From Proteromonas lacertae (lineage: Eukaryota): a DNA stretch of 62,474 nucleotides. The notes below the pieces were generated by a model. It was not told the DNA's origin, did no database searches, and saw nothing but the letters and a program-made list of their open reading frames with translations. The stretch covers positions 1 to 62,474 of the forward strand of contig NGBS01000903.1 of assembly GCA_002245135.1 (NCBI GenBank), given 5' to 3'. The first letter of the stretch is position 1. Each line of letters opens with the position of its first letter. Positions 3,001 to 62,474 of this stretch are shown here, in pieces. A program made the translations under genes and the position numbers.

Positions 3001-3819
3001 GGCTGGTTCATCGGATCCTATATAACCTACTCTGAATCTGAAATAAACTTTTATATAAGAAAATTTCTTCTCATTTATGTAGTTACGTATGGTAACCATA
3101 AAATCACTTGATGCATTGCAGATTTGGGTAAACAAATCCTCAGGTTTCTTTCCATCTTCTTCATTTATAATCTTCTCGTAGGTACGTTCGTAGTCTCTAC
3201 TACTTCTCTCTACAAGTTGTAACAAACTTACTCTTTCAGGATGTGACATTGTTTTCAACTGCTCTGGATGATTATCAACAACATCCAGAGCAATCATTTC
3301 TTCCTGTAGCTGCCTTCTTCTTTCAACATCTGTAGTTGATTGAGGATGTATTTCAGGAATTGGTCCATCATTAATTGGTGAAAGTGTTGGTGGATCTTCA
3401 GGAGGAGGTGTATCTGGCAATAAATCATCTGGGATTTCTGCTAATCGCTGTATTTTTGGAGGTGGAGGAGGTGGTTGATCAATTACAATTGAAGATGTTG
3501 TTCTTCTTCTTGGTGTTATGAAACTAGTTCCATTAGTACTTCTAGTAGTGTTTGATTGTTGTTGTTGTTGTTGTTGTTGCTGCTGCTGCTGAGGTTGTTG
3601 TGGATGTTGATTTAATGATCCTACATAATATGGTGGAGGATAGTAATAGGATGGTGGTGGTGGGATAGCTGGAGTAAAATAAGGGTTCATCCAGGGATTA
3701 AAATAACTTTGTGGCAACATTGGAATCTGATTTGCTTGACTATTGCCTTGAATAGGTATAGAAGTACTTGGAGACTGGTAATACCATGGATTAAACCAAG
3801 GAGGATAGCTGGGATACAT
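1..3819 (-). CDS. polB: Protein-primed family B DNA polymerase (Polinton type) with N-terminal extension; split by about 7 single-base frameshifts, 3' end outside window
   Basis: Joining ORFs 2530-3819, 1793-2437, 1440-1796, 797-1483, 357-599 and the untracked frames gives motifs in the expected order: NMCFLFSV...DHY (OTU-like), CQYC...H...C, ExoI YWDTE, CMWC...HDHFTGKY..LC.NCN (Endo VII-like), ExoII HNSKNYD, FIDSCQFMPASL, KGHFPYEY, ExoIII YLAIDV, PGLAWS, GGISM, Pol motif A YVDYNSLYP (~344-370), GYILEVDI. Frameshifts near 2582, 1797, 1760, 1450, 800, 588, 385. Confidence 0.92.
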
Positions 3820-4014
3820 TAGAACCTATAAAACGAGAAAGATATAAATATACCCAATAAAATAACTCCAAATGTATTAATATGATTTGCTAATTGAAAT
3901 TCCTTGATAATCAAGGAGTTGTAATAATATAGTTAATTTTTTTTCTTTGATTATCAAAGAAATAATTAACTTTACTTTTAATTTATTGTTTTTTTGATTT
4001 TTTACTATATTAAA

Positions 4015-5488: not shown

Positions 5489-7768
5489 TTACATATTCAA
5501 TATTTCATTTAATTCATTTTTATATTCATCACTTACACAACTACTTACTTCTTCAAATATAGATTTTATCAATTCAAAATTATCGTTACTAGTCGACAAA
5601 ATATTTTTCTTATAAAGATTAGAAAACATCTTCACAGAATAATTCAAAAATGTTGATTTACTTTTCTTGTTTTTATACTTTTGTATCTTTTGAATTAGTA
5701 TATTAATATCTTCACTTCCAAGAGATATAGATGAATAATTCTTATCACATATTTGATTAATCAATTCACATACTTTTTCACTATAAAAATCTGAACTTGT
5801 TGATATTAAATATATTAATCTTGAAATAACAGTGGGAGTTGTAATAATTGGAATTGATTCTTTATCTTCATTTGCACAATATAAAAATGTAGTGATTATT
5901 GTTTCAAATATTTCAGTTTTACTATTATCACTTTTAAGTAATATTTCTATATAAATATCTAATCCTTTGTTCTTCCTAAATTCAATTTGATTCAATACAT
6001 TCTGATAGCAACAATTTCTCAGTGTTTTCAAATAAGTACATAAATATTTCTTTATATTATAATTCTGTATTATTGTAATAATCATTGGAATAGCACCAGC
6101 TTCACGAAAATCATCTTGATTCTCTTTAATCCTTCTAATTAAATAAGATAAAACGGCACAAGCTCTTGCAGATATATCTTCATTATCATGCGATAAGAAT
6201 TTCAATAGATTTGATATTAATCCAAATTGTCCAAGTAAAGCACATGATTTTTGATCAGAATTTGTTACATTTAATAAACATCCCAAACATCTTAATAATA
6301 TTTTATTAAACCTTTTATCTCGTGATGGACAAGATGACAAATATTTCAATACAACAGGCAAACTATCTTCTTCACGAATAGGATTAACTTCTTCAGTTGT
6401 ATCTGTTGCAATATTCATTAATATTCCTAATAAATACTCAACGAATTTATAATTCTTTGGTTTGATAAAATGAGAAGATAACATTGATGTTTGTGTTGAT
6501 ATATTTAAAAATGATAATATTTTTGTTATTAAAGTTACACCTTTCATTTTTACTAAAACGGATCTATTTTCGCTATTATTGGATATCTTTTCACATATAA
6601 ATGCTGCTGCTTGTTCTTTAATAATATGATTAGGCCATTTTAAGAATGAAATTGATAATTCAAAGTTAGATTTCACTACAAATGAATATATATAAGCATT
6701 AAACCAACTTCTACCGAATTTATCAATAGTATCTGAGGTAGTAATAGATGACTTTAAAAACATTGAAGATTCTGCTGATAATAATGGTGGTACTCTTTTG
6801 TATTCATTATTATTACTACCTGATAGTGTTGAATTAGGTGATTTTAATGGTTTATCTACATATAAACTCCATAATATTTTATCAGCTTCTTCTGATGTAA
6901 GTATTCTATACCATTCATGATTTACGACAGATAATTGGCAGATTGATTTGGGTGGTAAATAAGAAGCAATTTTTATACGAATTGTTGCTTGAAATATATC
7001 GATTGGATTGACAATGTTGTATTTATTATAACAATTTTGACAAACTCTCTGAAGATTCAAGTTGTAATTATTGTTTTTATTAATGCTAATGCTGTTATTA
7101 ATGATATTTGTAGAAGATGATTTTTTATCAATTTTGAGTGTTGATTCTATTGTGTTGTTACTTGAATTCGTATTATATCCAAGTATTTCTAATTTATGTC
7201 TCCATCTTGTACAATCATTGCAGAATACCTCACCACATCCTCTACAATGGTGTTTACGGTTTAATAATGTGAATTCTGCATTACAACTTGAACATTTAGA
7301 GAATAAACTATCTCTTAACCAAAATTGAGAAGGTAAAGGTCGACTAATTCTGAAAGGAAAATGATCAGTAGAGTCAGAATTACGCAATGATGCAGCTTCT
7401 AATGGATAAAGTGTATGACGCTATATAGAATAGAAAAAAAGTCAATCTAAATACTTCTAAAAGGAAATAATCATTCTCAACATAATCCATATCACATAAC
7501 TGCATATGAGAACTACTTTTTGATCCTCTACTCTTCAGATAGCATCTATCACAAATACGGACTGGACTTTCATATCCTAAATTTGGAATTGGAGAGTAAT
7601 TAGAGCAACAATTATTGCAGAATATCTAATTAAATAATATCGAAAGAATACTTCACCACAGTTCCTACAATGGTGTCTTCTTAAAATTAATCCAAACTCT
7701 TTGTGACATATAGAGCATTGATTACATTCATCATCACAAATCCAAATTGGCTGATCTCCATTATTCAT
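5489..7768 (-). CDS. Double-FYVE, F-box and armadillo-repeat protein
   Basis: FYVE1 WICD..CSIC..RRHHCRNCGE|IFCNNC..VRICDRC; FYVE2 WLRD..CSSC..RKHHCRGCGEVFCNDC..RVCQNC; F-box-like IASYLPPKSICQLSVVNHEW; ARM-like helical repeats. Introns 7626-7651 and 7421-7454; one frameshift near 7570. Confidence 0.85.
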
Positions 7769-11102: not shown

Positions 11103-14100
11103 ATGTTAAATACTAATGCGCTTCGTGTAGCTTCTGGTGTCTTACCAGCTAGTACTCCAATAGAAATTCAAAAAGAAAGAAGTAAATACGCTAATTTATA
11201 TGTATTTTTGTTTGTTTATAGATCCATAGATAAAAGCAACCAATAAAAGTACCAAAAAATCTAACAAAAAGTCTTCTGCATATTTAAATCCAGAAAGTGG
11301 TATAGAATTCAATGTTGACATAACTCATTATTCATCTCAGACACCCATACTTCCTCCATTATCACCAAGAGATAATGGATTAGTTCCAGATATTTTAACA
11401 GAAAGAACAAGACGAAGTTGTGATTATGATACTTTACTCCCTAAACCACCCAATTCAGCAAGACCTACTTTAGGTGGACGTGTTAAAAAAGATCCCTTTA
11501 TATTAGGAGCTCATACAGGAATACCACAATGGAGAAAAAACATAAAACCTGATAAAGATAAGAATGAAGAACCTCCAATGAGATTAGGTGAAGGAGATAC
11601 AGTAAGAGAAGTAAGTCCAATAAGATATAAAAGGAAAAAAAGAAAGAGAAATAATAATGATAATGACAGTGATACAAATAGTGAAAATGAAGAAGAAGAA
11701 GAAAAAGAAAAAATGAATGATAATAATATGATAAAGACAGTATTCTATACAAAATCAATGACAATTCCTCCACCTAAACCTCCTAGAAGTCCACGAATGA
11801 TGGTAAAACCTGAAGATAATAATGTAGATAATAAAAACAAAAGAATAAAACAAGAAGAACAATCACAACAACAGTCGAAAGAACAAACTAAACAATCACA
11901 AATACCAAATCAATTGGAACAACAATCAAAACAATCATCACCACAGCAACAGTCCAGAAAACAATCGAAACAATCACAACAATTTTATTCACCATCTCCA
12001 TCTCCATCAATACCAACATCTAGAAATCAATCTCCTACTATTAATAATAATATTCCAATATTATCAACAACTCCAATTAGGCCTACATCATCAGCATCAC
12101 CAGATAATACATCAATACAACAACAACAACAACAACAACAAACTAATGCACAACAAAAACAACAACATCAAATTCGACAATTACCATCTCATACTCCTTA
12201 TTCATTATCATCATCAACTTCACCATCTCCACCATTAATACCTCCAAATAATAACAATATTCAACAACAACAACAACAACAACAACAAATACCATATCAA
12301 CCTCAAATATACATCGGATCAAAACACAATAATACAATGTATTACAATGGTGATGTACATTTACAGAATAAATCAATAATGAATGATTATTTAAACTATA
12401 ATAATGATCACATTCATCCTAATAATATTCCTCCATTATCTGTAAATATTGATAATAATTATTCACTACCTTCAATCAGTGAAAGTGTATTAAATCCACC
12501 GAATAAAATTATATTAAAAAAGACATTACCCAATAATAATGGATTGTTAGTTGATAATAATAGCATGTATGTTAATTCAAGATTATTACAACCTTATGAT
12601 TATGAGTATGATGATGATGATAATGAGAATAATGATGAAGAAAGTGATTATGAAGGTGAAAAATTATATGATAATGATAATGATAATGAAGAAATACAAA
12701 GAATACAACAACAAAAGAGACTTAGACGAAAGAATAATAATAATAATAATGTAGGAAATGAGAATAGTATAAATGATAATACATTAGAAAGACAATTATT
12801 AAATGAATATAATAATAATAATCATAATAATAACATATCACCTATTGATTCTTCAGTATTAATAGATAATCGTAGTGATAATGAAGAAGAAGAAGAAGAA
12901 GAAAATTATGAAGATGAAAGTGATAATGATGAAACAGTAAATGAATATGAACAAAAACTATTGGCTAATTTTGATCCAGATAAATATGTAATAGATGATG
13001 ATGATTATATGTTAATGCATAGAGGATTACAAGATACTTATTATGATGGATTTAATAATGATTTATATAACACTTATAATAATAATGACATTGAAAGTGA
13101 AAGAGAGAATTTATCTGATACATTCTTTCATGGAAGGAATTATAAGTCGCCAACTCCTGAGGAGAATATATTTTTAGAAAATACTGTGTATAATACACCC
13201 TTTCAAAGTAAATCATTGAATTGTGCAGTAAATGACGATAAATTGAACAAAGAAGCTGAAAATGTGATGAAAGAATATATAAAAAAGAATAAAAAAGATG
13301 ATTCAAATTTCCCAACTACAACTTATTCAATTAAACAACAAAGAATGAATATACAAAACATAAAACAACGTAAAAATAGAGTAGAACAATTAGCCAATGA
13401 AATGTTGCAATTTCAATTGTCGGATCAAACATTCTTCTCCAATGAAAGTGCTCAGATTTTATTTGACAGTCCTCAACGTAATTCCATTTCATTTAGTCAA
13501 CCACCATCAAGAAGTCATAGTCCAAAATATGATAATTATAATGAAAATAATGAAAGTATATCAAAAGTAGAAGAATATTTCAATAAAAGAGTTTCAACAA
13601 TGAAAGAGAATAGAGAAAGTACAATCTCTGTATTAAGTACTAATACAACAAGTTCTAATTATACTAATAATAATAACAATAATACTCGAATTATATCAAG
13701 CCCAAGAACATCTCCTTCAAATACTACGAACAATAGAAACAAATTCCTTACTGCTTCAGATAATAAACTACCAACATGGTCACAAGTTAGAAGAGGAAGT
13801 ACTTTGTATGGTAATAGATCTCCTCGTAGTAATACAAGTGACAGTGATAACAATACATTGCCAAGTATAATGGAGAAACCAATGACAGCTCCACCTAACA
13901 AGAAGAAAAATTAACAGTTGAAGAATTACATAGAATGAGAATGAATAATAGAATCCAAGATTTGCAGGAAAGAATATATGAAGAAGATATGCAAAGACAA
14001 ATTGAACAGCAAGAGAAAGAAGAGAAAACAGTTACAACTGAACATATTAATATTCGATATATGAGTGGTTATGAAAGAGTAGATACTGATATTAAAAGAA

Positions 14101-17100
14101 AAGTGAGAGAATTAAAGAGTATGAGAGTAAGGAAGAGAAAGCCACAAATACCAAAACATCAATTTAAGAAACATAAGAAAGAAGTAAATGAACATTTAAA
14201 TGATAAAGTAGAGAAAGTAGAAGAAGTTGAATATGTAGCACCACTACCAGATGTTGTAGAAGATTTACAACCAAATGCAGATTATTTAAAACGGACAAGT
14301 ATGAAGATAAATCCATTGTTTAAAAAGATTAATTTAGATGATTTTGATTCTCCAAGACGAGGTGCTAGAATGAGTGTTTATAGACGACATTCAATGATTA
14401 AAGCAGTAAAAGATGTATCATTTGTAAGGAGAGCATCATCGTTAAATGTTGGTAAAAGAAATAGTGTTTTAGATATGAATTATATTAACCAATTAGAAAA
14501 TATGGCATTAGTAAATGAAGGTAAGAATGTATTGGATAATTTATTTGGTGATGGTGAAGAAGAAAGATATAAGAATCTACCAGATATATTGTACAGAGGT
14601 GGTGCACATTGTGAATATTTAGTGGAGAATCTTATTACATGGATTAATCCACCAGATGTTGTTCAAGAAATCATTCAAGCCAAGCATTACAAAATGGCAA
14701 TGAAGAATTATACTGTAGCAATATTAAATCACAATATTCAACAGCAGTTAATATGGTCAACAGCATTACAAGGATATAGATATGATAAAGACTGGGAAGG
14801 TTATTTATTAAGAGGACAAACTTATTTGAAAAGTGGACATTTTGAACAAGCTTTGCTTGACATGTGTTTAAGTTTGCAATGTACAAATGATGATAGTAAA
14901 ATGAAAGCAATTTCATTTGTGTGGAGATCTAAAGTATTAGAAGCAATGGGATATGATCAAATGGCTTTAGAAGATGCAGTTGAAGCAATAAAACTAGATG
15001 ATAGAAGTGCAGTAACAAATCTAAGATATGCAGAATTATCATTTGAAAGAGAAGACACAATGAATTACCAGAGATATATGAAATATGCAGTATATCATGA
15101 CTTAACAGATAATTCAATAATGTCAAGAGCAAAATTAAAAGAAAAAACTGAAAAAGGTAGTGGTATTGGTGATTTTAGAACTATTGTTGAAAGAAATATG
15201 AATAATAGTGAAGCAATAGTTGAATTAGCTAACTGTTTAATTGCAAGAGATGAAATAGAAGATGGTTTAGAAGAATTCAAAGTGTTAGCGAATGTAATCA
15301 GTAGAGAATCAAGTGTTAATTCAAACCATGAAATATTGGCAATCATCTATATAGAAATTGCAAGATTCTATTTATTGTTAGGAAAAGTAGAATTAGCTTA
15401 TAATAATATAAACAAAGGATTAGAATTGAAACAGACTGTAGCTTTAGGTCATTATATAAAAGCATTAATTCATATCACTGATGGACCATATTATTCCCTC
15501 TCCAATGCAGTAACACAATTGAATTATTCTTTGACTTTAAATCCACATTTATGGTATTCATATGAGTTGAGAGGTAAATTATATGATTATAAAGAACAGT
15601 ATGCATTAGCAATTACTGATTTCAGGCAAGCAGTAAGAAGAAGAGCTAATTTATATTGGTGCAGATTAATAAGTGCCAAAATTTTCCTAAAAATTACTAA
15701 GAGTTATGCAACTGTTCATAGTGAATGTGATGAAGCGTTATTTTGGGATCCTTTATCTATTCCTGCAAGAGTAATCAAATCATTAGCATATGAAGGTGTT
15801 GGTTTCTTTAATAATGCATATAGAATATATAGCAGTTTAATTCATCTATATCCAACTAATAAATGGTTTTATTTTGGAATGGCTTATATGTCTTTGAAAA
15901 TGAGAAAAGTATATTATTATTATTATTATTATAAAATAGCCTTATTTAGCTTTGGATTATTATACTACAGCTTCGTTCTTAGATAATGATGTTAATAATA
16001 AAACCAATAATCTGTTATGGAGAGCTCAAGCTTATACATTATTAAGACATTCTAATGAAGCAATAAGTGTATTAAATGAATTGATATTACATGATCCATC
16101 AGTTTATAATTACTGTATGTATTCTATTAATTATTATCGACTTGGAAATACTAAAGAAAGTGATAAAAATATTCAAATGATTAAGAAATTATATATTGTA
16201 AATAGTGATAAATTAGAAGTGAGTGATATATTTATGATTGCTAAAACATACTTAGAATGTGAATATATTGATGATTGTTTAGTAATTGTGAAGAAATTAA
16301 GAGATTTGAAGTGTAATAATGCTGATATTGATAATATTGAAGGATTATGTGAATTGAAAAAAGCAACAGATACTTTTATAGAGTTGAATAAATCCAATAA
16401 AAAACTTTCATTCTTAGAGAATAAAGAAATATTCCAAAAGAGTTTAGACTCTTTTCAATAGAGCAATAGAAAAAGATGAGAAATTTGTAGATCCATATAT
16501 AAATAGAGCAGAGATATATTCCAAACTAAAAACACCCTTTGAAGCTGTTCAAGACTATTTAAAAGTAATAGAATATGATAATGAATGTTTAAGAGCATAT
16601 AATAATATAAGTGCCTGTTTTATCAACCAAAGTCAATGTTGTAAAAGTATTGAGTATTTGAATAAAGTAATTGAATTATCTCCTTCGTTTTGTATTGCCT
16701 ATTATAATCATGGATTAGCTTATCATCGATTGAATAATATAAATGAAGCTATAAGTGATTATAATTTTGTATTAAATAATAGTCCAAAATTTGAATATGC
16801 TTTGAGAAACAGAGGGATTGCTTATTATGAATTGAATGAATTAGATAAATCCAATGAAGATTTTAATCAATTAGCATTATATTATCCAAAACATTCCAGT
16901 AAAATGGCATTTGCATTTTTACAATATAAAATAGCTGATTCTCAACAAAATCCAAAACAACATCTCATTTCTACACTTCAATTATTTGATAAGATTATTG
17001 AAGAATATCATGATGATTCTTATTATACTTATATTGGAGCTGGTAATATCTGTAGCAAGATTGCTGTTATAGATACAGTAGAAATAAAAGAGTATATAGA

Positions 17101-17917
17101 AAAAGGAAAATTCTATTATAATAAAGCAATATTGAAATATCAAGGAGATATATATGGAACTTTAGGAATTTGTCATTTGTTAAATATTGAAGGAAAAGGA
17201 GAAAAGAATAAATTAACAGTGAAACGACTATATGCTAAAACAAAGAATGATGAGATGGCAATAGAATCAACTGTTAATGAAAGTGAGATATATGTAATAC
17301 CTGGAAGAATCAATAATAATCCTGAAATTAAATGTAAATATGAATTATATGAAATACCTGAGTCTTCACTAAAAACAAATAAAATAGATAAAACCTATCA
17401 TTATTTGAATAATAAAGCAGTAATTCAATATTTTAAAGGGAAATTGAAAGATAGTAGAATGTTATTTAAATCAATAATTGATAAAGTGAACAATTATGAT
17501 ATAGGAATATATAATTACAGTACAAGTGTATTGTATTTAGATCCATTTGAAAGTATTAAATATTTATCATTATTAATTGATAAAAATAATTCAAATATCA
17601 GTTATTTATGTAATAGAGGAGTTGCCTATATATTATCTGATCAATATGAGAAAGCTTTGTTGGATTTGTCTCAAGCTATAAAGCTTGATAGTAATAATCC
17701 ATTTTTATATACAAATAGAGCGAGTATTTATACTTATTTAAAACAGTATGATAAAGCTATATTTGATTATAGTAAAGCAATTATGATTTTACCAACCAAT
17801 CCAATTAATTATGTTTTAAGAGGGAAGGTGTTTAATTTAGATGGTAATATACCTGCTGCTATGAGTGATTTTAGTGCAGCATCTTATATTGATAAAGATA
17901 TTGTAATTACTTTGTAA
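11103..17917 (+). CDS. Very large TPR-repeat protein (~2200 aa) with long disordered N-terminus; TTC6-like architecture
   Basis: ATG 11103, intron 11202-11229, open into ORF 11578; homopolymer frameshifts near 13910 and 16455; intron 15909-15939; many TPRs (AYYNHGLAYHRLNNINEAISDY, ALRNRGIAYYEL, LYTNRASIYTYLKQYDKAIFDYSKAI). Confidence 0.8.
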
Positions 17918-29276: not shown

Positions 29277-30871
29277 ATGTCCAACTCACTAATTGACATT
29301 AATCAAACTAATAGTATACATTGATGTTATTTTTTTTAGAAATTAGTAAACCAAACCTTAAAGTCCCTCAGCAACAACAATTTGTTAATAAACAACAGTT
29401 TATTTCTACTCCAGTGAGTGAAGCATGCCAATTGCCGTGTATGCTACCTACAGGAAATGGTATTTCTATATTCATTTATGTTTTAGGTGCGAAAAAGCGT
29501 AAATGTAATAATAATATTCCAATCATTCTGCCACAACAGCTACAACAGCAAACTCCAAAACTTAATAGTGTTGATGCTGCTGAGTTGAAAAAGCAACAGA
29601 GAATAATCAGAAATAGAATATCTGCTCAAATGCACCGTGAAAGGAAATTTGCTTATATAACAAGCTTAGAAACACAAGTCAAAGAAAAAGATAGAATAAT
29701 ATCAGATTTAAGATCCAAAGTTGATTGTTTGAATAATCAAATTGTAGAACTTTCCAATATGAATATTTCTCTACAAGATCAACTTAAAAAATCACTTGAA
29801 AATCAAGTAATTAACAAGCCTTTACCTATCACTGATGAAATAATATCATCAGACGAAGGAGCTAATAAGACTAATTCAGCAACTTCATCACCAATATCCT
29901 CCGATGATTATAGTTCAGAATCTTCAACTGGAAGTCCAGAAATTGGAATAATAAGTGATGTAGATAGTCCAAACATCAACAGTCATGAAAATTTCTTTCA
30001 TTTTGAGCCAAATTTCGATGAAAATGATTATCTCTTTTTCAATACAGATAATATATTTTCATCATCTTCTTCAAACAATAATAATAATAATAATTCTCAT
30101 TCAAACTCATTCAATCAATATAATTCTATAATAATAGGATTATTGATATTTACTTTACCTTTGCTATTTTTAGCAAATGGATTACCATCAGTTGGATTTG
30201 GAGTTACAAGGAATGAGATAAGAATGAATAATAATAATAACAATTATAGATTCTTGGTAGAAAATGAACATTTTCCTGCATTACCTGATGCAATAGAAAA
30301 TCCAAAATTAAATCCGTTTGTGAGTAATCCACCACCTGATCCAGCATTGAAATCATTTAATGACAAATCATCAGATATGAGTAAGGCTATTAGTATATAT
30401 AAACATAAACCATTGAATAATGATATCTTTGCATTGAAGAGATGGGAATCTAAGCTACATGACCAATTGAAGAATAATGCAAATGATGTGTCAAAACAAT
30501 TGTTTAGTAAAAGAGATGATGTGAATAGCAAGAATAATCATTTAAGACATGATAAGCAACATCACCATGAAGAAGATTATCAACGTAAATATAATTCTTC
30601 ATATCTTATGTGTCCAAATGCATTTGGTAAGATGTTGTTGTATGATGGATCATATATCACTGATGAGAACAACAATATTTTGAATTTGACAGATATAAAT
30701 ACAACAAATTGTGAAAAAGAAGGTGAAAAACCATTTTTGTTGTTGTTAATACCAAGACATCATATCCAATTAGAAGGTGATTACAATGAATCTGAGAATG
30801 ACAAAGCAGAATGGGTTGAAATTTCGTGTAATGTTGTTCGTTCAAGAATTGTAAGGAATTTAGCTATGTAA
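29277..30871 (+). CDS. Membrane-tethered bZIP transcription factor (ATF6/bZIP28-like)
   Basis: ATG 29277; introns 29314-29339 and 29460-29486; basic region KKQQRIIRNRISAQMHRERK plus leucine zipper; TM IIIGLLIFTLPLLFLA; luminal RFLV; C-terminal LLLLIP...WVEISCNV. Confidence 0.85.
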
Positions 30872-50822: not shown

Positions 50823-51657
50823 ATGTCATTATTCCAAACATTCACTTCGTATATTTGTTTTTATTAATAAAATTAGACAAGAGTTATTATCTAAACAAGC
50901 AGCTCATGAGTTGATCAATATAGCGGAAGAGTCTATCAAAAAGAATGGTCGTTTTGTTTTGGCTATTGCAGGAGGATCTCTTCCAAAAATACTAGCTTCT
51001 GGTTTAGATTCAAAATATAATTATGAGAAATGGTATGTATTCTTTGTGGATGAAAGATGTGTAGCTTTAGATGATAAAGATAGCAATTACAACCTATTTA
51101 TGCAAACTCTTCAGCCAATACTGAATTTGCCAGAGGATCATATATTTCCTATTAAATACAATGAAGATCCAAAAGTAATAGCACGAGAGTATGAATATAT
51201 AAGATGTAATATTTAGTTATGAAACTGATTTATTAAAATTCTTTGTCAAAACAACAGAATATCCAATATTTGATATTATATTATTAGGAATGGGAGAAGA
51301 TGGACATATTGCCTCATTGGTATATATTTCTATTTTTAATTTATAGTTTCCAAATCACAAATTCTTTGAATACAAAGATTTCATAACAGCAGTATTTGAT
51401 AGTCCAAAGCCTCCTCCATCCAGAATATCTTTTACCATGCAATTGATATTGAATGCAAGGTACATAAGGTTTATTGTTACTGGATCAGGTAAATCAGCTG
51501 TTTTGAATAAAATATTTAACGAAAAAGATTTATCAAGACCTCCAACACATGTATAAATCGAATAATTATATTATAGCTTAATTTGAAACACACTAATGTT
51601 AAATGGTATTTAGATGATGCAGCTGCAAGTGATATTCGTGAATTGGAAAGTAATTAA
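50823..51657 (+). CDS. PGLS: 6-phosphogluconolactonase
   Basis: GRFVLAIAGGSLP, FFVDERCV, DSNY, LLGMGEDGHIASL|FP, DSPKPPPSRISFT, VTGSGK, WYLDDAAA; four short introns. Confidence 0.95.
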
Positions 51658-51850
51658 TTGTGAATATATCGTTATTTATGCTTTTATGAGAAAATTGATT
51701 GTTATTCATTAAAGAGACATAAATTAAAATCGAAAAACATCCACAGGTGTATTTTTTAATTGAAAATAGTAATGAGTATATTGCCAGTTTTTCATATCAA
51801 CGAATTTTGTGATACTGCAATTGACAAGTCATTTGCAAGAGTTGTTATAA

Positions 51851-54800
51851 ATGAAATTCTTAATAATTCTTTTTATAGTGATAATAAATAGTTCTTGTGC
51901 TATTAACGTAGGATATATTGTTCCAGCAGAAGAAGCTTTTAATGTAAAGGATGCTTTAGATGAATATAGTGATTCTATTAATTCACAATTGGAAGGCGAT
52001 GCTAAATTTGTCATTCAAAGCATTTCTTCGTATGATGGTACGGTAGAGAAGTTAAGTAGATGCATTCAGCACATTTTTGAACAACCATGTACAGATAATT
52101 ATATCGTTTTGTGATAAAACAATATATGAGTTTAATTTTACAAATAAATATGAAGATTTAGTTGTGTGGTGTATTAATCCTGTAGCTCCTCGAATATGCA
52201 AAAGAAACTTGATCGCTGGTGATTTAATAGACTATTCATTGGAGATGAGTATATTATATATTTTCATATATACTTTAGTAATATCACTAATTGTTTATCA
52301 GTTCTATCCGAATTTCGTGTATATTGGTGGAAATGACAATACAATAAATGAAGTTATCAGTGAGCAGATGATTCTGTTAAGTCAATCAGTAGGTATGACC
52401 TTAATAGCAAATTTAGACCATGATGTGAAGAAAGAAGATATAAAAAAAGCATTAGAGTTATGTCTGACTTACCAATACAAAGATGGATGTACAATTGTTA
52501 CTAATGCTAATGCAGTAGATGTATATGAAGAAATACTAAGCGTTATTCGAGATGCTGTTGCAGATCCAACTAAAAAGATTCAATTAGGTTTATTTAGTTC
52601 AGGAATGAATTATAAAATTATGGACCAGATATCTACACAGAATAAACCATTTTTGAACATGGCTGGACAAATTAACTCATTCTCAGACTTACCTGTTACT
52701 GGTAATGATATTTCTGCTTATAATGCTCTTAATACAAACCATTACTATCCAGATCTAGAAGCACAAATGTATATTTTCAAATATCTTATGTATTTACCTA
52801 TAGAATTGGTATAATCAACATATTAAAATTAGCATATGAAAGAGTACCATCTCAAGATGCATTTATACTACTTAGTGCTATATATAACACACCAGTTGAT
52901 TATGTAGGTGGTAAAATAATGTTGAGAGAGAATCACTACACTACATCTAATAATTACATAGTTACATTAGGTGCTAATGGTAGACACAGTATATTGAATG
53001 CAGTTGTCGATTTAGACACATTAAATGATCCTCTCAGTGTGTGTGGTAAAGTAAAAGTAGAAGAATGTAACTTCGTATATAATATAGAAAATGGTATAAT
53101 ATCTAAAGAAATTGTGACAATTTTATTCATTCATGAATTGTCTCCTTCAACTATATTTTTTGATAGAACTGTAAGAATTTCAACATTAGAAACTATTAGA
53201 GACATTAATAGTAATGGTGGTTTATTAGATAAGACAATTACTCCATTATATATATCAATTAGTCAGTATGATGATATGAAAATATTTTTAAATGATGTGA
53301 ATAAGATTATAATTGAAAATAATATTTCAGCTGTGTTTTTCTCAGGAAATGTAACTATTCGAGATTCAATTATACAGTCTACTAAACCTACAAATGTAGA
53401 ATTATTCTATTTAGATTATACTGAAGGTAATATATGTGAACCAAATGTCATATTTACAGGAATATGTGGAACAAACATAATATATGAAACTGTTCGTTTT
53501 ATCGTAGAGAATTATATAGATAATATAACAATAATTGGTTCAACCACTTCCAGAGGAAGATCATTAGTAGAATTATTGAAATCTCAATTAGCTGTATTTG
53601 GTAAAACATATGGAGTATCTTTATTAATAAAAGACGATAGTGATGATTATTATAAAGAAGCTGAAATCATTGTTGATAGATTAGTTCAGTTGTATGATAT
53701 ATCAAAAGGTGGATTAATTGTCAATGTTGCTGAAGATATTTATAATGAAGCAATCTATACAACTCTATATAAGAACAATATAACTATACAAAATGGTTGG
53801 AAATCTGTGTCATATTCATTAGATGAATTGCAATCATATTATATTAATAAAGTAACTGGTACAAATATGTATGGATATTCATTTGTAGGACATTATTTAG
53901 ATATATTGAAGAATAAAGAAATGGAAAAAATAAAATCATATTTTAAAGATAAATTTGCTGTTGATCTTCCTATTTCCAATAGGTTAGTTATTGCTTATAA
54001 TTCAATTCATTTCTGGATAAAAGCCTGCGAATTGTCTTTATCAACCAATCCTAAGTTATTTCGTTCTCATTTATATCAAACCACATTAAATATAGATAAA
54101 AGTCCTGGTGGTATTTATTCAGTTGAATATACAGGTTATGCAACAATGGTTTTACGAATTGGAAGAGTATAATATTATTAAATATTATAATATATAGTTA
54201 ATATCAAATACAAAGGTTGTTATTATTAAGAATAATACATATGTTCATTCTACAAATATATTTCACAATGAAAGTTATATTTGTACATGGAAAGATAATG
54301 CTGGAACAATAATAAAGAGTACATATTTAGTTGGTGTTATTTATGATATAAAATCATATGAAGGTATTCAGTATTTAGATAATTTACAACTTGTCATTGA
54401 TTTAATCAATTATGATGGTGGAATAAATGGTAGAAATATTGATATATATGTAGATTCTGAGTTTAATGGAAATTACACTGAAACTATTTTGAAACTAGCT
54501 AAGAATCCTTATCTGATAGGTTATATTGGCACTACTAATAAAGAAGAAAGAGATGAAATAAATGATGTATTGGAAATAGTTGATAAATTGTTATTAAGTC
54601 CACATCAAAGTGTTGGTGAAGTTACTTATAAGAACATAATTCAATTGAATTCAATAACCAATCAATTTACTGAATTCCCATTAGTTTCATTTTACCAAAC
54701 ACATAATTGTGTTATTGCATTTTTAACAAATGATTCTATTGGACATTCAATTGGTCATTATATTGTAAATAAAGCAAATCCATTAGGTTTTTATCCAAAT

Positions 54801-57800
54801 GTTACATATGTTGATGAAAAGAGTAATAATATAGATGATGAAATTGAAAGAATAACCAACATATTGAACAGCAATTTAACTAATATTGATACATGTGCTA
54901 TATTTACATATTTACAAAGTGTGACAGGTGTATTTTTAAAGTCAATTGATGGAGAATATGATGTAGATAATTATCCAGTAGTTATGTTAGATTATCCAAA
55001 AACACTTTTAGAAACATATTTTAAATCAAATTCAAGTATAAGTAAATCAATATTGGTTGGAAGATATATCTTATCTATAACATCATTAGATGCTGATACA
55101 AATTTGAATAAGAAAATATTCAATATTATAAAGACTTATAAAGGTAATCCATATGAATTAATGTCAGTAATCACAACTGCTATATATAATGGTGTTCATG
55201 CTGTACAATTAGTGATGAATAGTAATATAAGAACTTCTTCAGATATGAGAAATAGTTTATATAATACTGAAATTGAAACTGGTGTTGGGAATGTTAAATT
55301 ATATAAGAATAATTATGTATCTAATTATATCTATATAATGCGTATAATAAATGAAGAATATAAAGCAAATTATTATGCTTATTCTGTATTACCAATTTAT
55401 CCAGAAGTATGGAATAGTTTTGATCATGGTAATGAATATTATAGAACTGATTTTCTTAATAGTACTGAAATGATATTAGACAATTATATTGGAATTGCAT
55501 TTCTATTGGATATTGAGAATTATCAATCTACTTATGCATTATATAGATATTATTTAGGATTATTGGAAATAACCAAAGAGAATTTAAATGGTTATATTCA
55601 GTTTAAGAGATTAAAAGGTGAAATATACAATTGTCCAAAAAGTTCTGAAGATGCTTCAGGATTATTGATTGAATTGAATAGAAGAGGATTTAGGTTATTA
55701 GTAGGAGGATGTGATATGGAAAGAGAAAATTATTTAGAAGATGCCTTAAGTTTGTTAAATATGATATTATTATATACTGGGTTAAATGAAGGAAATAGAT
55801 GTTCAAAGAATGTAATATATGTAACTGCAAGTCCAAATCAAAGAATTATTCCTCCATTGTTATATTTAATGAATAATATTGATAATGAATTGGCTTTATT
55901 ATATGATGAAAGATTCAAATCTTGTGCTGATTTGTTGCAAAATGTTGCAGAAACATTGGATTATAAAATACAAATATCAAAAATAATTATACAAAAAGAG
56001 ATGAATAGTAGATTGTTAAGGTTTTTAACTACTATAATAAAGAAGTTTCCAGATGGAATTCCAATTGTATTTATTGGTAGACCAGAAATGACTGAAAACT
56101 TTTTATCAACAGTATATACAATTCTAAAAGATGATTATCATGATTCGATGGTAGAAATAACTGAAGTATACCCTATTTATGTTTATGATTTGGAAAAGAC
56201 ATATTTTAGTAATGTAAAGATTGCAGATGGTGTGTTATTTTTCTCACCATTTTTATACAACAGTGATAATCAAAGAAATATTGAGTTTTTTACTAACATC
56301 AAAAATTATACTGGTAATTCATTAAATCCTACATATTATGATGCTATTTATCCAACTGTAATCTCTATTATATCTAATGCGTTGAAAAATACAAAAGATT
56401 TAAACAATATAACTGAAATAAGAAAATCACTTTATGGAATTGAACCACAAACAGATATTGGAGTAGTAAAAATATCTAAAGACAACATTTTGAATCAAGG
56501 AAATTTGTTAGGAAAAGTGAATATTAAAACTGGATTAATTGAAGGAATAAATCAATTGAATTATCTATGGAAAGGCGAACCTTGGAGAAGTGTTTTAAAT
56601 GAAAAACCATATTATATCTGTAATCAAATAGTTGAGCATAATGGAATAGCTATAGGTGATAAAATTGAACCTAATACTGTGAATATAGGTATTATATTTC
56701 CCAGTGATATTGATTATAAAACAAATGGTTTATTATTGGTTAAAACAGTAATATCAATGACTAATTATATCAATGAAAAGATTGAAAAGAATGAAATTCA
56801 TTCAAAATATTATTTAGTTCCATATTATATAACAGTGTCATCAGAGAATACTACAAAATCAGTGGAAATAATAAAGAATTTTACAGAATATTATGAAATT
56901 GATGCTTTATTCGGAGGATGGACAACTGAATTGAGATATGCATTAAATGATTATATTGTTGAGAATAGTAAATTGTTATTTTATTTCTATGATTATGAAG
57001 GAAGAGAATGTTTAAGAAATGTGTTTTATTTTGCTAATCCATTCAGTACCTATTTCACTATAACACCTTGGTTAAAGAATAATTATCCAGGTATTGGTGT
57101 TGTTTTAGTATTTTCAATAACTACAACATCTAAATCAATAGCACAACAGATTGAATCACAATTTAAAGTATATGGTATAAATGTTATTCATAAATATGAA
57201 AGTCCTACTGACAATCATGATTTTAAACCACTTATGGATTTGATAAGAAGATATACAGTTAATGGTGCAATATTTGTATCTTTTTTAGAAGGAAGAAGTT
57301 CTGTTTTGTTAATACAAGCAATGAATGATGAAGGGTTAAAACCACCAGCTTATTTTAGTTTATCAATGAATTTAGATTCTTTATTAATTGATGAAACATT
57401 TGTTGGTCATTATTATACTATTACAGTAGATTCAAATAGATTATCATCAAATGAATATAAGGAATATTCGAATATTCTTAAATCATATTTTTCTTATCAA
57501 ACAAAATATGTTCAAAATATAGCAAGACCAGCTTCATTGATGTCTATATTTTATAATATGTATGTGAAAGGAAATTTCAAATCAAATGCTGAAGTTTTGA
57601 GGCATTTAATGATGAATGAAAAACATGATACACCTGCAGGAATAATTTCATTCTTACCTAATAATCATGTTGAATATTTCATTAGCATAAGAAAAGTGAT
57701 AGAAAGCGAAGATTATGAATATGATGTTTTAGATGTATTTAATTCACTAATAGAATATATACCAAGGTCATATGAATCATTCTTTAGTAATAATCCAATG

Positions 57801-60800
57801 TATTTGTGTGACTTACAAAATACAATGGATGCTGTTGAAATATCAGAGATATTTATTGGTGTAATAGTCAAAGTATCCACTAAAAATGATTGTGATAATT
57901 CTGTTTTAAATGGTGCTATTAGTGCAATAAGAAGTATCAATGATAATGTATTAATAAATGGTTATACATTTGTACCAAAATTAGTAGAATATTCTAATGA
58001 AATTGATGAAATAATTATTGATAAGATTAATGATATATTAGACATGGATAATGTAGTTGGTATTATAGGATGTACAAATATTAAATGTAAAAGTGTAGTA
58101 CAAAAATTAGCAATTGATAAGAAGAAGCCATTTATATATCCCAAACAGAGTTTAGGTCAAGAATGTAATTATTTTACAATATATACAGGTCTAGTTCCTA
58201 ATCAATATATGAGTAGATTATTACAATACATATTATCATTAGATGTTATTCAAAATGTCTATTATGTTGGTAATAATGATAATGATACAATGTTGTTTTT
58301 TGATATATTTGCTGATGCTTCTAGTGGATTATTATTACATCAAAATGACTTATATATAAATGAATCATACAGCTTAAATGTAGATAGAGTTAAATCCAAT
58401 ATATTTTCATATAGGAATAATATAGATGATGGTGGTGTTATTATTGTATATTTATCAATTGTAGAAGCTATTCAATTTATGGAAATATGTAGTGATATTA
58501 AAATAGACAAATCTAAATGGAATATATTTATAATGAATATAGAGATTGAAGAAATTACTAGTAGTGGTGTATCTTCAGAAATATTAAATAATATACATAT
58601 TATTTCTCATTACTTTTCTGATGTAGTTTCTGATGTAAATGAAAAAACAAAAGAAGTAGTATATCATTATACTGCAGTTGAAAATCCATCTGCCTTGTAT
58701 ATTTCTACATATGTTGGTATAATGTTATTGAAAAATGCAATTGTTGGTATATATGAAAATAGTAACGGCAATATATCAAGTATATATAATTGGGATATAC
58801 TAAGGAAGAGTATGTATCATAGAACAGTTGAATTTGGTGCAGGAATAATCACATTAGAACCAAATCATCATGTCAATTTACCTTTTTTCGTAGGGAAATA
58901 TTCATCAACAGAAAAGAGGTTTATTACTGTTTATTCTAAGTTTGATCATTCTGAAGCAGAGGCTTGGAGTTGGTATTTGCAAGAATATACTGGAAAGCAA
59001 TGTAATTATGAAGGTAAAGGTGAAATATATGATGTTAAAACCATAAGAATATTATTAGTTGGAAGTATCACTGGTGGAGATAGTGAAGAAAATAAGGGTA
59101 TTGTTGATGTATATCAATTAGTAATTGATGAAGTTAATGAATTAGGAGGAATCAAGGATTTCATCCTAAAAGGTGATATCTATGATACTCAATCTAATAC
59201 TAATTATTGTAGTAACTATATACTTCAATATAAAGCAAAATATCATCCATATTTAATACTAGTATCTGCTGAAGAAGAATGTATAAAGAAAGTAATAGAG
59301 AGTGAAGATGATACATCCTCGTTTTATTTAGTATTAAATCAAGTAAATATTGGTTATTGTAAATCAAATGTTATATTATCTGGATTTCATCCTACACTTT
59401 ATGAGAATATTTTAGATGTATTAATAAATAGAGAATATAATAATTATCTGTTAATTGGATCTTCCTATTATCATGTTACAGGTTTTGTGACTTTGTATTT
59501 TAAGAAATACGGATATAAATTCTATGAGCCATTAGTGTTTGATACAAATATAACTAAAGAAAACATTACCGAATATCTAAACAAATTCATGTTAACATCA
59601 CCAAGGAATGAAAGTAACATAATCATATTTGTTGGATATAATCCACAATTCGATGTATTGCAAGAAGTATTAACAAAGTTGAATCTATCTGAACCATATA
59701 TGAATGTAATATCATTATATATGTATTATGAGTTAAAGAAAGGCAATATTATTGATTTTGAAGGTGTAACTGGATATAACTATCGATCACAAACTAAAGA
59801 GAATAAATTATTCATTGAAAATATGCAACAACGTTTAGGTTCAAAAGATGAAATAACAGATGCAATAGAAAGAAGTTATTCTGCATTTAGATTAATGGTA
59901 AAAGCTATGAATGAAAGTTCAGAATTAACATATTTATCAATAAAAGAATCAATATTTAAAGTCAAATATAATTCTCCAGAAGGGGAAATATCACTTGCAG
60001 TGAATCAACAAATGAAAAGAAAAATGATCATTTTTAAAGTAGATAAAAATGATGGTAAAGAAATAATTACATTTCAAACTGGAAATTATGTAGAACCAAT
60101 AATATATTACACTATTGATTCAACTTATCCAGTGTGCGATTTTACTGATAAAACGATTGGTGAAAAAGGACTTCCAACTACTTATGCAATCGGATTATTA
60201 TATTCAATGACAGGTGCATGGAAAGGTATTGAAATACAAATATTCCATACGATTCTATTAGGATTATCAGATATAAATGAAAGAAAATATTTTGGTGATA
60301 CATATGTTATATATGAATTATATGATACAAAATCAAGTGTAAAAGGTTATGTTGATGGATTTAATTCATTCAAAGCAAATGGTAATATTTTGTATGTATT
60401 TGGAGGATCAAATCATGAGACATATCAAGCATTACTTCCATTATTCGAAAAGGTTAGAAAAATATTCATTTATACTGGAATTAATTATAATACTGAGTGT
60501 TATGCTCATACATTTTCAGTTTCAAAACATCCATCACAAATAGCTGAAGCTAGTTTACATTATCTAATAGAATCAACTACAAATGTAGTATTATTACATT
60601 CTGAGAAATCTGAATATTCTAAAGTGGTCTATAAATGGATTTATAATAGGTTTACTAATGTATCAATGGGGATTATTGGTAATATAGAGTATAACAACAG
60701 CTAATTATGCAGTTCATTCAATAAATACAGTATTAAGAAATGGTGGGTTATATTTTGAATATATTATCTGATGAAAAAGAGAATTTAAATTTCTTTAATG

Positions 60801-62474
60801 AAATGTGTAAATCAATCTATTACCAAATAAATACAAGGTTATAAGTGTATTAATAGATGAAAATTTAATACATAAAGTTGATAATATGAAATGTATGAAA
60901 GGAAATGTGTTGTTAGATACATATTTTGAGTCATTAGGAAATAAAGCATTGAATAAAATTGGTGTTATTAATTTATCAACTTCATTTAATATTGCATTAC
61001 ATTCCTATTTAGGATCAAATATAAGAATAACAAGTTTACATGAAAGTGCATATTCTGGATTATTAATATGGTCAAATACAATTAGTAAGCTAAGTACAGG
61101 CAGATCAATATGATATTACCAAAATTATTGGTATATTTACCATATCCAATTCAGTTCCATCGGATTCAGTAGATGTTGAAAAGAATAATTTACTTTCTAG
61201 AAGAATGTATGCTGCTACTGTAACTCCAAATAATCAATTATTAATTGAATATGGTCCAAAAGGTGTATTTTATCCTGAATTGTTTAATCAATACACTAAT
61301 ACAACAGGATGGTTTTGTGATGTATCAAGAACTAATCAGGAATATAGTTACTATAGTTATCCACTATATATTGCATTTATACATGAAAAAGATGTAGGTG
61401 TGAAAACTGAAATATATATGTCATTAGTAGAAGATGCAACAATTAGAGATATTAATGATAATGGTGGTGTATTGAATCATAGATTAATTGGTGTTCATTT
61501 CTTCCCTTCTAAACATCTAATATTTGCTAAAGCTCGTGAAATTACTCTCAGTAATCAATATCAAATTATAATTGGTTGTATGACATCTTATTGCAGAGAT
61601 GAAGTTTAGTAGATATGTTAATAGAAATGATAATGATATGTTATTCATTGATACAGGTAGAGATAATGGCAATGCCATGTTATAGAAAGACAGTTATAAC
61701 TGGAACAACAATGGCTCAAAAATTACCTTTATTATTGGATTATTTAAACAATGTTGGTATTCATAATATAATAATTATTGGTTTGAATGATGCTTATTCT
61801 GTTATAGAAGCTAATGAGATTTATAATAAGACAATTGATGCTGGTTATAATATTGAAGGAATATTTTATTGTTCGCCATACAATAAAGAAGAAATAGCAA
61901 AGATTATGTCGAATATTACTGATATTATTAGTAGAATTGGTAGAGTAGGAGTGTTTAATTTATTTGAATCAAATCAGAATCAAGTTTTAAGCGAATATTT
62001 AGTAGCTTTTGGTGCTAGATTTAACGTTTTTAATATGATTTTCTTTAACTTTGAACCATTTGAGTTTACTGATGATATGTTAGTTCAATTAACAGGATCT
62101 TTTGTTGTTTCATCATATTCTACTGTTTTATCTGAAACAACAAGTGATACATTCAGTTATACACTTAGTACAGAATTTACAAAATACAGTCAAATGTCTG
62201 AAAGTATAGAATCAGCTTATGTAGCAATAAAGTTGTGGGAATCTGCATTAGAATATGCTTCAACACAAACAAAAGAAGAAATACCAAGTAGAGCTTATCT
62301 TCGTCTGAGTTATTTTAATGTCAGACTTACAGCACCATCTGGAGCAGTAAATGTCCAACATAACAATCATTTATCTAAAAGTGTAACATTATTTAAAATT
62401 AATAATGATAATCTTGATTTAGTAACACCAAGAAAAGGAGTAAAATATTATCCACCTGATATATTATATGGAGT
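51851..62474 (+). CDS. Giant secreted or surface protein of at least 9 tandem UrtA/AmiC-like type 1 periplasmic-binding domains; 3' end outside window
   Basis: Signal peptide MKFLIILFIVIINSSCA; introns 52249-52278, 52769-52803 and 54167-54197 join the ORFs; frameshift ~52076 and about six between 60690 and 61680. UrtA-like motifs: AIGLLYSMTG, INSNGGLL/INDNGGVL, DALFGGWTTELR, LLFYFYDYEGREC, YTGLVPNQ, ESAYVAIKLWESA, SPEGEI, NNH/PNHH. Confidence 0.9.
51902..62474 (+). repeat. Nine protein-level tandem repeats of about 380-400 aa
   Basis: First beta-strand of each unit at ~51902 (INVGYIV), 53111 (IVTILFIH), 54324 (YLVGVIY), 55485 (YIGIAFL), 56679 (VNIGIIF), 57849 (IFIGVIV), 59043 (IRILLVG), 60183 (YAIGLLY), 61364 (LYIAFIH). 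No obvious nucleotide-level identity between units. Confidence 0.88.

Follow-up and report, generated by a model that had tools for sequence, protein, structure and literature searches.

G protein-coupled receptors (GPCRs) of class C are understood as carrying one Venus flytrap domain per chain, which closes onto a dimeric seven-transmembrane (7TM) domain. A gene at the end of contig NGBS01000903.1 from the eukaryote Proteromonas lacertae raises the question of how a chain of nine flytraps could signal from its distant sites to the membrane, and whether such a chain would offer cooperativity, range or reach. The gene lies on the + strand, begins at position 51851 of the window (the whole 62,474-nucleotide (nt) stretch of this contig that was analysed, to which all coordinates refer) and runs off the window end at 62474. 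It encodes a predicted signal peptide, nine flytrap units derived from the bacterial urea-binding protein UrtA and, likely, past the window edge, a class C 7TM domain of the GABA-B-like type that lacks a cysteine-rich domain. We predict that the product is a chemosensory receptor for a ligand other than urea, and assign this reading a probability of roughly 0.6.

As judged from its sequence, the receptor is encoded by one eukaryotic, intron-bearing gene. The ATG at 51851 opens a hydrophobic signal peptide, MKFLIILFIVIINSSCA, predicted at about 17 residues (51851..51901, + strand), and the paralog P0003 begins with a similar one. This is the only segment of the read-through with a 19-residue hydropathy above 1.9, and hydropathy analysis of the read-through revealed no transmembrane segment within the window portion of the gene. 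The product thus begins, as class C receptors do, with a signal peptide followed by an extracellular flytrap. Three short GT-AG introns interrupt the 5' part of the gene on the + strand: intron 1 (52249-52278, 30 nt) is in frame and stop-free, and the alignment with P0003 places an 11-residue gap exactly over it; removal of intron 2 (52769-52803, 35 nt) restores the frame; and intron 3 (54167-54197, 31 nt), which lies within unit 2, is supported by a check of the spliced frame. Once spliced, the gene reads from 52107 to 60689 through 2,829 codons with no stop, and a single unspliced open frame of 2,168 codons extends from the end of unit 2 as far as the middle of unit 8. The read-through within the window amounts to about 3,500 residues and contains 31 N-glycosylation sequons. 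The window is AT-rich (GC 23-30% in most 2-kb bins), and the combination of AT-rich DNA with introns near 30 nt resembles Blastocystis and its kin (PMC12129017); the termination motif of Blastocystis is not enriched in the window (5 matches versus 6.2 expected). A preliminary description of the locus, made from the sequence alone, had reported one gene with a signal peptide, three tiny introns and nine units of about 390 residues, still open at the window edge after more than 3,400 residues. All of these elements were recovered here by hydropathy, splicing and Pfam or hhalign comparison, and the single-gene interpretation holds, given the 2,168-codon frame, the single signal peptide and relatives that keep the same unit order in a single open reading frame (ORF).

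The nine units are each about 370-400 residues long and all lie on the + strand. Units 2 to 7, the first half of unit 8 and the second part of unit 9 exceed the Peripla_BP_5 gathering score of 27 bits, with scores of 36.6-69.1 bits. These units comprise: unit 2 (53105..54317; 69.1 bits), which holds intron 3; unit 3 (54318..55481; 36.7 bits); unit 4 (55482..56672; 43.6 bits); unit 5 (56673..57845; 65 bits), which has the best-kept pocket; units 6 (57846..59039; 60.1 bits) and 7 (59040..60179; 63.1 bits), both covered together with unit 5 by a three-unit structural model; unit 8 (60180..61363), with four frame breaks; and the membrane-proximal unit 9 (61364..62474; 47.2 bits), which has two frame breaks and is open at the window edge. 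Unit 1 (51902..53104) is the most degenerate; it contains introns 1 and 2 and a frame break near 52104, and has only a weak Pfam match (E 0.15). Its assignment comes from a profile built from its pieces together with unit 1 of P0003, which matches the unit profile with an hhalign probability of 91% (E 1e-6), and from tblastn matches between the two first units (E 1e-6 and 2e-5).

Several comparisons place the units closest to UrtA. The sole NCBIfam matches are two urea ABC-binding models, both far under their cut-offs; TIGR03407, for instance, reaches 185.9 bits summed over six stretches against a cut-off of 492.75. In phmmer searches against solved structures the top matches are the cyanobacterial and thermophile UrtA entries 8HIC, 7S6F and 7S6E. 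A predicted model of unit 5 (predicted local distance difference test (pLDDT) 85, predicted template modelling score (pTM) 0.85) retrieves urea-binding proteins at Foldseek ranks 1-6 (four entries), with template modelling scores of 0.79-0.81, and the ESM Atlas returns only bacterial Peripla_BP_5/6 clusters for this unit. On profile and model evidence alike, the units have the type I periplasmic-binding (Venus flytrap) fold and are closest to UrtA. The UrtA-like assignment given in the preliminary description is thereby borne out, both by profiles of the PBP1 type (Peripla_BP_5 and the urea ABC-binding models of NCBIfam) and by structure, where the similarity to urea-binding proteins is about 0.80. 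The repeats are old, since five other units share no more than 15-21% identity with unit 5 and a BLAST self-comparison detects almost no internal similarity between units. Word-index homolog searches with the 2,167-residue ORF and with unit 5 gave nothing at E <= 0.001, presumably because the units are too diverged, and only a profile search succeeded.

That search, in which a profile of the window's units was compared with 1.84 billion representatives and the best 150 matches were considered, is the source of the evidence for what lies past the window edge. The relatives are referred to by P numbers and derive from Logan contigs. At least four matched stretches are present in 39 of the best 150 matches, and a Pfam scan of 54 of the 150 found 7tm_3 in 21 (above the gathering score in 19). 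Of particular interest is an AT-rich family of 42 matches, grouped by amino-acid composition and collinearity. A complete ninth unit is present in 17 of its 42 ORFs, and all 17 continue straight into a class C 7TM domain through a linker of about 20 residues. In 16 of these 17 relatives, the last residue of the window falls within 8 residues of the start of the linker-plus-7TM profile. Because all 17 relatives enter the 7TM domain at this point, no unit would follow unit 9, and some 20 residues most likely separate the window end from the first transmembrane helix. The earlier count of at least nine units accordingly keeps its nine and loses its open end, as the position of the 7TM domain in relatives makes exactly nine very likely. 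By the same comparison the complete protein would be near 3,800-3,900 residues long.

The 7TM domain of the relatives is recognisably of class C. That of P0001 has GABA-B2 as its best match among solved structures (E 1e-17), and the relatives carry the K..R motif of transmembrane helix 3 and the E motif of helix 6 that are described for class C receptors (PMC3727952), in the form K.WR and FNE in all five sequences checked. The cysteines of helix 3 and extracellular loop 2 (TM3-ECL2) are likewise seen in the relatives. The cysteine-rich NCD3G domain, which marks the mGluR/CaSR/T1R subgroup, is not listed for any relative that was scanned with Pfam. The window's gene is thus very likely a class C GPCR, with its 7TM domain attributed from relatives. 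Six ORFs (P0017, P0019, P0033, P0037, P0045 and P0056) had been considered as passing unit 9 without a 7TM domain and were set aside, as it is an inner unit that gives each its highest score against unit 9 (55-111 bits); five of the six map to earlier unit positions, and P0056 is not placeable.

The nine-unit array is not confined to the window's gene. P0003, for instance, has a signal peptide and nine units in the same way. In a FastTree tree of the units, each of the positions U2-U9 of the AT-rich family forms a single cluster (10 changes, compared with a mean of 49.8 after shuffling), and the array would therefore be older than the expansion of this family, since each unit position is its own lineage. 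Three distant giants from less AT-biased eukaryotic sources, outside the AT-rich family, also contain nine units each (by manual division) together with 7tm_3: P0001 (3,745 residues, start missing), P0180 (4,080 residues) and P0181 (3,909 residues). Shorter forms occur in Capsaspora (CAOG_05347, about three to four units with 7tm_3) and in the chytrid Phlyctochytrium (KAJ3101170, two units with 7tm_3), and a Pfiesteria transcript combines three units with Ephrin_rec_like repeats and has no 7tm_3 match. The preliminary description had proposed the uptake of a bacterial solute-binding gene that later received introns and was expanded into an array; given the nine-unit UrtA arrays with 7TM domain in the three giants and the shorter forms in Capsaspora and Phlyctochytrium, this was not a single event private to this genome. 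In the unit tree (FastTree, unrooted), two of 22 single-domain matches that are presumed to be bacterial fall together with the intact eukaryotic units (local support 98), and one of the two has cyanobacterial UrtA motifs; this grouping, in a tree without a root, fits the capture of a UrtA gene. The similarity among P0001, P0180 and P0181 is in register (p 0.0004, 0.0004 and <0.0001; over units 2-8, 0.0065, 0.015 and 0.0006), but the FastTree unit tree also holds off-register and within-protein pairs. The count of nine that the AT-rich family and the three giants have in common is striking, its inheritance from a common source being unproven.

Other matches show the UrtA-like domain in different surroundings. 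In P0180, a cysteine-rich linker at about 3690-3730 and the 7TM domain that follows it are unlike those of the other relatives, which have a C-x-F-G type of linker; this hints that the same ectodomain may have been joined to a different 7TM domain. UrtA-like domains are also fused to arginase, glutaminase, an amino-acid permease with pentapeptide repeats and Ser/Thr kinases (P0044, P0110, P0142, P0055, P0077 and P0114), and by these sequence matches the domain is widely reused as a putative sensor module. Six bacterial-looking proteins of about 1,500 residues (P0029, P0032, P0034, P0036, P0054 and P0069) have a UrtA-like domain at each end, with HEAT or STAND-type NTPase matches between them in five of the six; they were rejected as instances of the same architecture, as their two UrtA domains stand at opposite ends of the chain.

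To our knowledge, no urea-sensing GPCR has been reported. Urea ranks among the major sources of nitrogen for microbes, and its binding by UrtA requires Trp120, Ser122, Gln144, Tyr190 and Asn246 (PMC10392092). All five residues are intact in five of the nine units of P0001, eight of the nine of P0180 and seven of the nine of P0181; P0043 and P0182 have one unit apiece with the full set. In P0001, P0180 and P0181 the last unit keeps at most one of the five. The three giants would thus be candidate urea-sensing receptors and directly testable ones, as their urea sites, defined by mutagenesis, are complete and stand over a 7TM domain of the GABA-B-like type. The window's gene departs from this pattern: units 2-9 keep 0-2 of the five residues, and unit 1 did not align. 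The window's gene is probably not a urea sensor. In its family, none of the 145 units with all five columns covered retains more than three of them. Unit 5 is exceptional in its pattern: that of the window has Asp at the position of UrtA Gln144 and Glu at that of Asn246 and has lost the Tyr that binds the oxygen of urea, and across the paralogs unit 5 retains Tyr141, Glu146 and often Trp120. Position 144 is acidic (Asp or Glu) in unit 5 of 18 of 23 paralogs, as against 1/8, 1/35, 3/32, 2/35 and 2/33 in unit 4 and units 6-9, respectively; position 246 is acidic in unit 5 of 18 of 34 paralogs. The Asp/Glu pair is absent from the 30 commonest pairs listed for 112 aligned stretches of other matches.

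How such a receptor might work is suggested by the way the units are joined. Each unit's Cys-bearing tail enters the first strand of the next unit within about 15-20 residues, and units 4-8 show almost no variation in the Cys pair. A predicted model of units 5 to 7 (pLDDT 84, and a pTM of 0.79 over 1,169 residues, which is no direct measure of rigidity) suggests that the units have a fixed packing. We propose that the units would pack as a fairly rigid rod above the class C 7TM domain; that a ligand would close one or more of the outer flytraps; and that the movement would travel along the rod to unit 9, which would act as a transducer and whose pocket is degenerate in all nine-unit forms examined. 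The 7TM domain is then predicted to pass the signal on to a G protein. P0001, P0180 and P0181 would represent the ancestral type, whose five to eight intact urea sites might sum or sharpen a urea signal; in the AT-rich lineage the gene would have been multiplied and its pockets remodelled. The weakest step of this proposal concerns the ligand: the acidic pocket of unit 5, with Gln changed to Asp, Asn to Glu and the Tyr lost, might favour a nitrogen compound of positive charge, for example an amine, ammonium or a guanidine. More tentatively, and at odds that we place slightly short of even, these sequences may represent a hitherto overlooked family of very large class C GPCRs built on a nine-UrtA rod, whose conserved members would sense urea through five to eight sites per chain with a non-binding transducer, and whose AT-rich lineage, including this gene, would be an expanded chemoreceptor repertoire with rebuilt pockets. 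In the AT-rich family, a protist has seemingly branched such receptors out into dozens of forms.

Alternative explanations concern both the integrity of the gene and the role of its product. Several separate single-domain genes in tandem might have been misread as one, since the units are so little alike (15-21%) and frame breaks cut units 1, 8 and 9; against this, one 2,168-codon frame stretches from late in unit 2 to halfway through unit 8, there is one signal peptide only, and in the relatives the same unit order is contained in single ORFs, the longest of 3,244 residues, so that this explanation is largely refuted and hardly worth retaining. The frame breaks themselves could be real, in which case the window's copy would be a recently broken paralog of a receptor family, and large paralog families often shed copies. 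Seven breaks without an intron signature are present, near 52104, 60692, 60745, 60816, 61100, 61606 and 61672, and each of them would be explained by a base run that is one or two bases too long or too short. Recent decay fits poorly with their distribution and context: six of the seven fall within 980 nt near the end of the sequence (simulated p 0.0002), and the 2,829 codons are free of nonsense mutations, even though roughly 6% of random substitutions would yield one. P0002, a relative whose frame is unbroken, can be aligned collinearly through the last six breaks, and the broken units 8 and 9 show no extra divergence from it (48% and 61% identity, against 41-55% for the unbroken units 5-7). 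The codon-position GC pattern is also retained. A neighbouring gene region that contains TPR repeats (11230-17917, + strand) has two similar breaks (at about 13905 and 16453) in base runs with no intron signals, as judged without a reference. We consider it likely that the breaks are homopolymer assembly errors, and regard a pseudogene as rather improbable.

If the gene is intact, its product might still be something other than a chemosensory receptor. The preliminary description had mentioned a solute scavenger or surface-coat protein, which could be secreted or GPI (glycosylphosphatidylinositol)-anchored and have no 7TM domain. Consistent with this, there are no transmembrane segments inside the window, Entamoeba has a GPI-anchored protein with a single flytrap and no 7TM domain (PMC12965686), and 25 of the 42 family ORFs end before reaching a 7TM domain. 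These 25, however, end inside unit 9 or ahead of it, and many of them share the profile position at which they end (about 155-160 or 209), which is what introns or contig ends would produce; the 17 paralogs that pass unit 9 all bear a 7TM domain. A scavenger or coat role is contradicted by these paralogs and seems very unlikely. A nine-unit 7TM protein could also use its array as a structural stalk or adhesion rod, with non-binding flytraps and with contact, proteins or force as its input. The absence of any unit with more than three urea residues among the 145 of the AT-rich family, pocket columns in units 6-9 that are as variable as background or more so, a structural Cys pair that is far better conserved than the pockets, and the 31 N-glycosylation sequons all point in this direction. 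On the other hand, the acidic pocket of unit 5 is kept across paralogs that are less than 50% identical, and variable pockets on a conserved fold would also be expected of a diversified chemoreceptor family. We consider the stalk unlikely, marginally less so than a broken paralog.

Several observations weigh against the interpretation of the gene as a chemosensory class C receptor. Its own 7TM domain lies outside the window, and the closest relative, P0002, stops inside unit 9 and so shows no 7TM domain. The preliminary description had looked to an extension of the contig for the carboxy-terminus; no continuation was found in two metagenome scans, and the answer to that question, a class C 7TM domain, comes by way of the relatives. 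The 7TM tree has long branches, unsettled bootstrap values and no resolution. Positional orthology between the AT-rich family and P0001, P0180 and P0181 was considered and is unsupported beyond the end units (units 2-8, p 0.95, 0.38 and 0.10). With a column mapping that can slip at 15-20% identity, conservation in the pocket columns does not exceed background for units 6-9 (p 0.88-0.99) and does so only marginally for unit 5 (p 0.044, one of six tests); most units may therefore bind nothing. The rigidity supposed for the rod is subject to the limit on pTM given above. The chemosensory receptor nevertheless remains the interpretation that we favour.

The remainder of the window contains several other genes. 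Broken ORFs at its start (1-3825, - strand) have no Pfam match at E <= 0.001; their motifs resemble those of protein-primed family B DNA polymerases, and they possibly belong to a Polinton-like element. A protein with FYVE, F-box-like and ARM-repeat domains is encoded at 5489-7420 (- strand). A bZIP protein (29315-30871, + strand; bZIP_1 match) has a later hydrophobic stretch and presumably resembles the membrane-bound ER (endoplasmic reticulum)-stress transcription factors. Immediately upstream of the receptor, a 6-phosphogluconolactonase-family gene with short introns (50840-51658, + strand) ends about 190 nt before the receptor ATG.

Among known systems, the receptor is most like the class C GPCRs, and GABA-B in particular, in that a signal peptide and flytrap are joined to 7tm_3 (as seen in the relatives) without a cysteine-rich domain. 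It differs from them in having nine flytraps instead of one and in using the UrtA subfamily instead of ANF_receptor, with the 7TM domain of this gene predicted from its relatives. The fusion of a bacterial solute-binding domain to 7tm_3 also has precedents in Glutamate-family receptors outside the metazoans (PMC3251606, PMC3971589). Krishnan and colleagues (2012) described bacterial-type binding domains on such receptors, with Capsaspora CAOG_05347 included in their supplement (PMC3251606); the supplement of de Mendoza and colleagues (2014) lists '/Peripla_BP//7tm_3/' without copy number (PMC3971589); and diverse ectodomains are noted in PMC12716839 (eLife 107467). The available text of the 2012 and 2014 surveys names ANF, Bmp, OpuAC, LysR, SBP_bac_1, PBP_like_2, TctC and generic Peripla_BP domains, and contains no UrtA identity, copy numbers or nine-unit array. 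A literature search, with most subscription journals outside its coverage, brought up neither a GPCR with several UrtA domains, nor a nine-unit UrtA array, nor a GPCR for urea, which agrees with the earlier statement that the architecture belongs to no described family. The nine-unit UrtA-based class C receptor type is thus likely undescribed, whereas the combination of a bacterial binding domain with 7tm_3 is already catalogued. The EhVFT protein of Entamoeba histolytica differs in having one domain, a GPI anchor and no 7TM domain (PMC12965686).

UrtA (8HIC, 7S6E, 7S6F, 8TG1) and AmiC (1PEA) share the fold of the units and give their best sequence and structure matches, and the repeat unit corresponds to a whole UrtA, including its Cys-containing C-terminal tail. 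UrtA, however, is a single soluble domain that serves an ABC importer, whereas the units of the window are chained, eukaryotic, intron-bearing and devoid of the full set of urea residues. Nor does the gene, on its upstream side, stand beside an ABC permease and ATPase: its neighbours there are an ORF that matches PPR weakly and the 6-phosphogluconolactonase-family gene. Chains of flytraps that signal across a membrane are known from the receptor adenylate cyclases of trypanosomes and from BvgS of Bordetella, each of which has two in tandem. In those systems two units are coupled to a cyclase or histidine-kinase output; in the present family nine units would be coupled to a 7TM domain.

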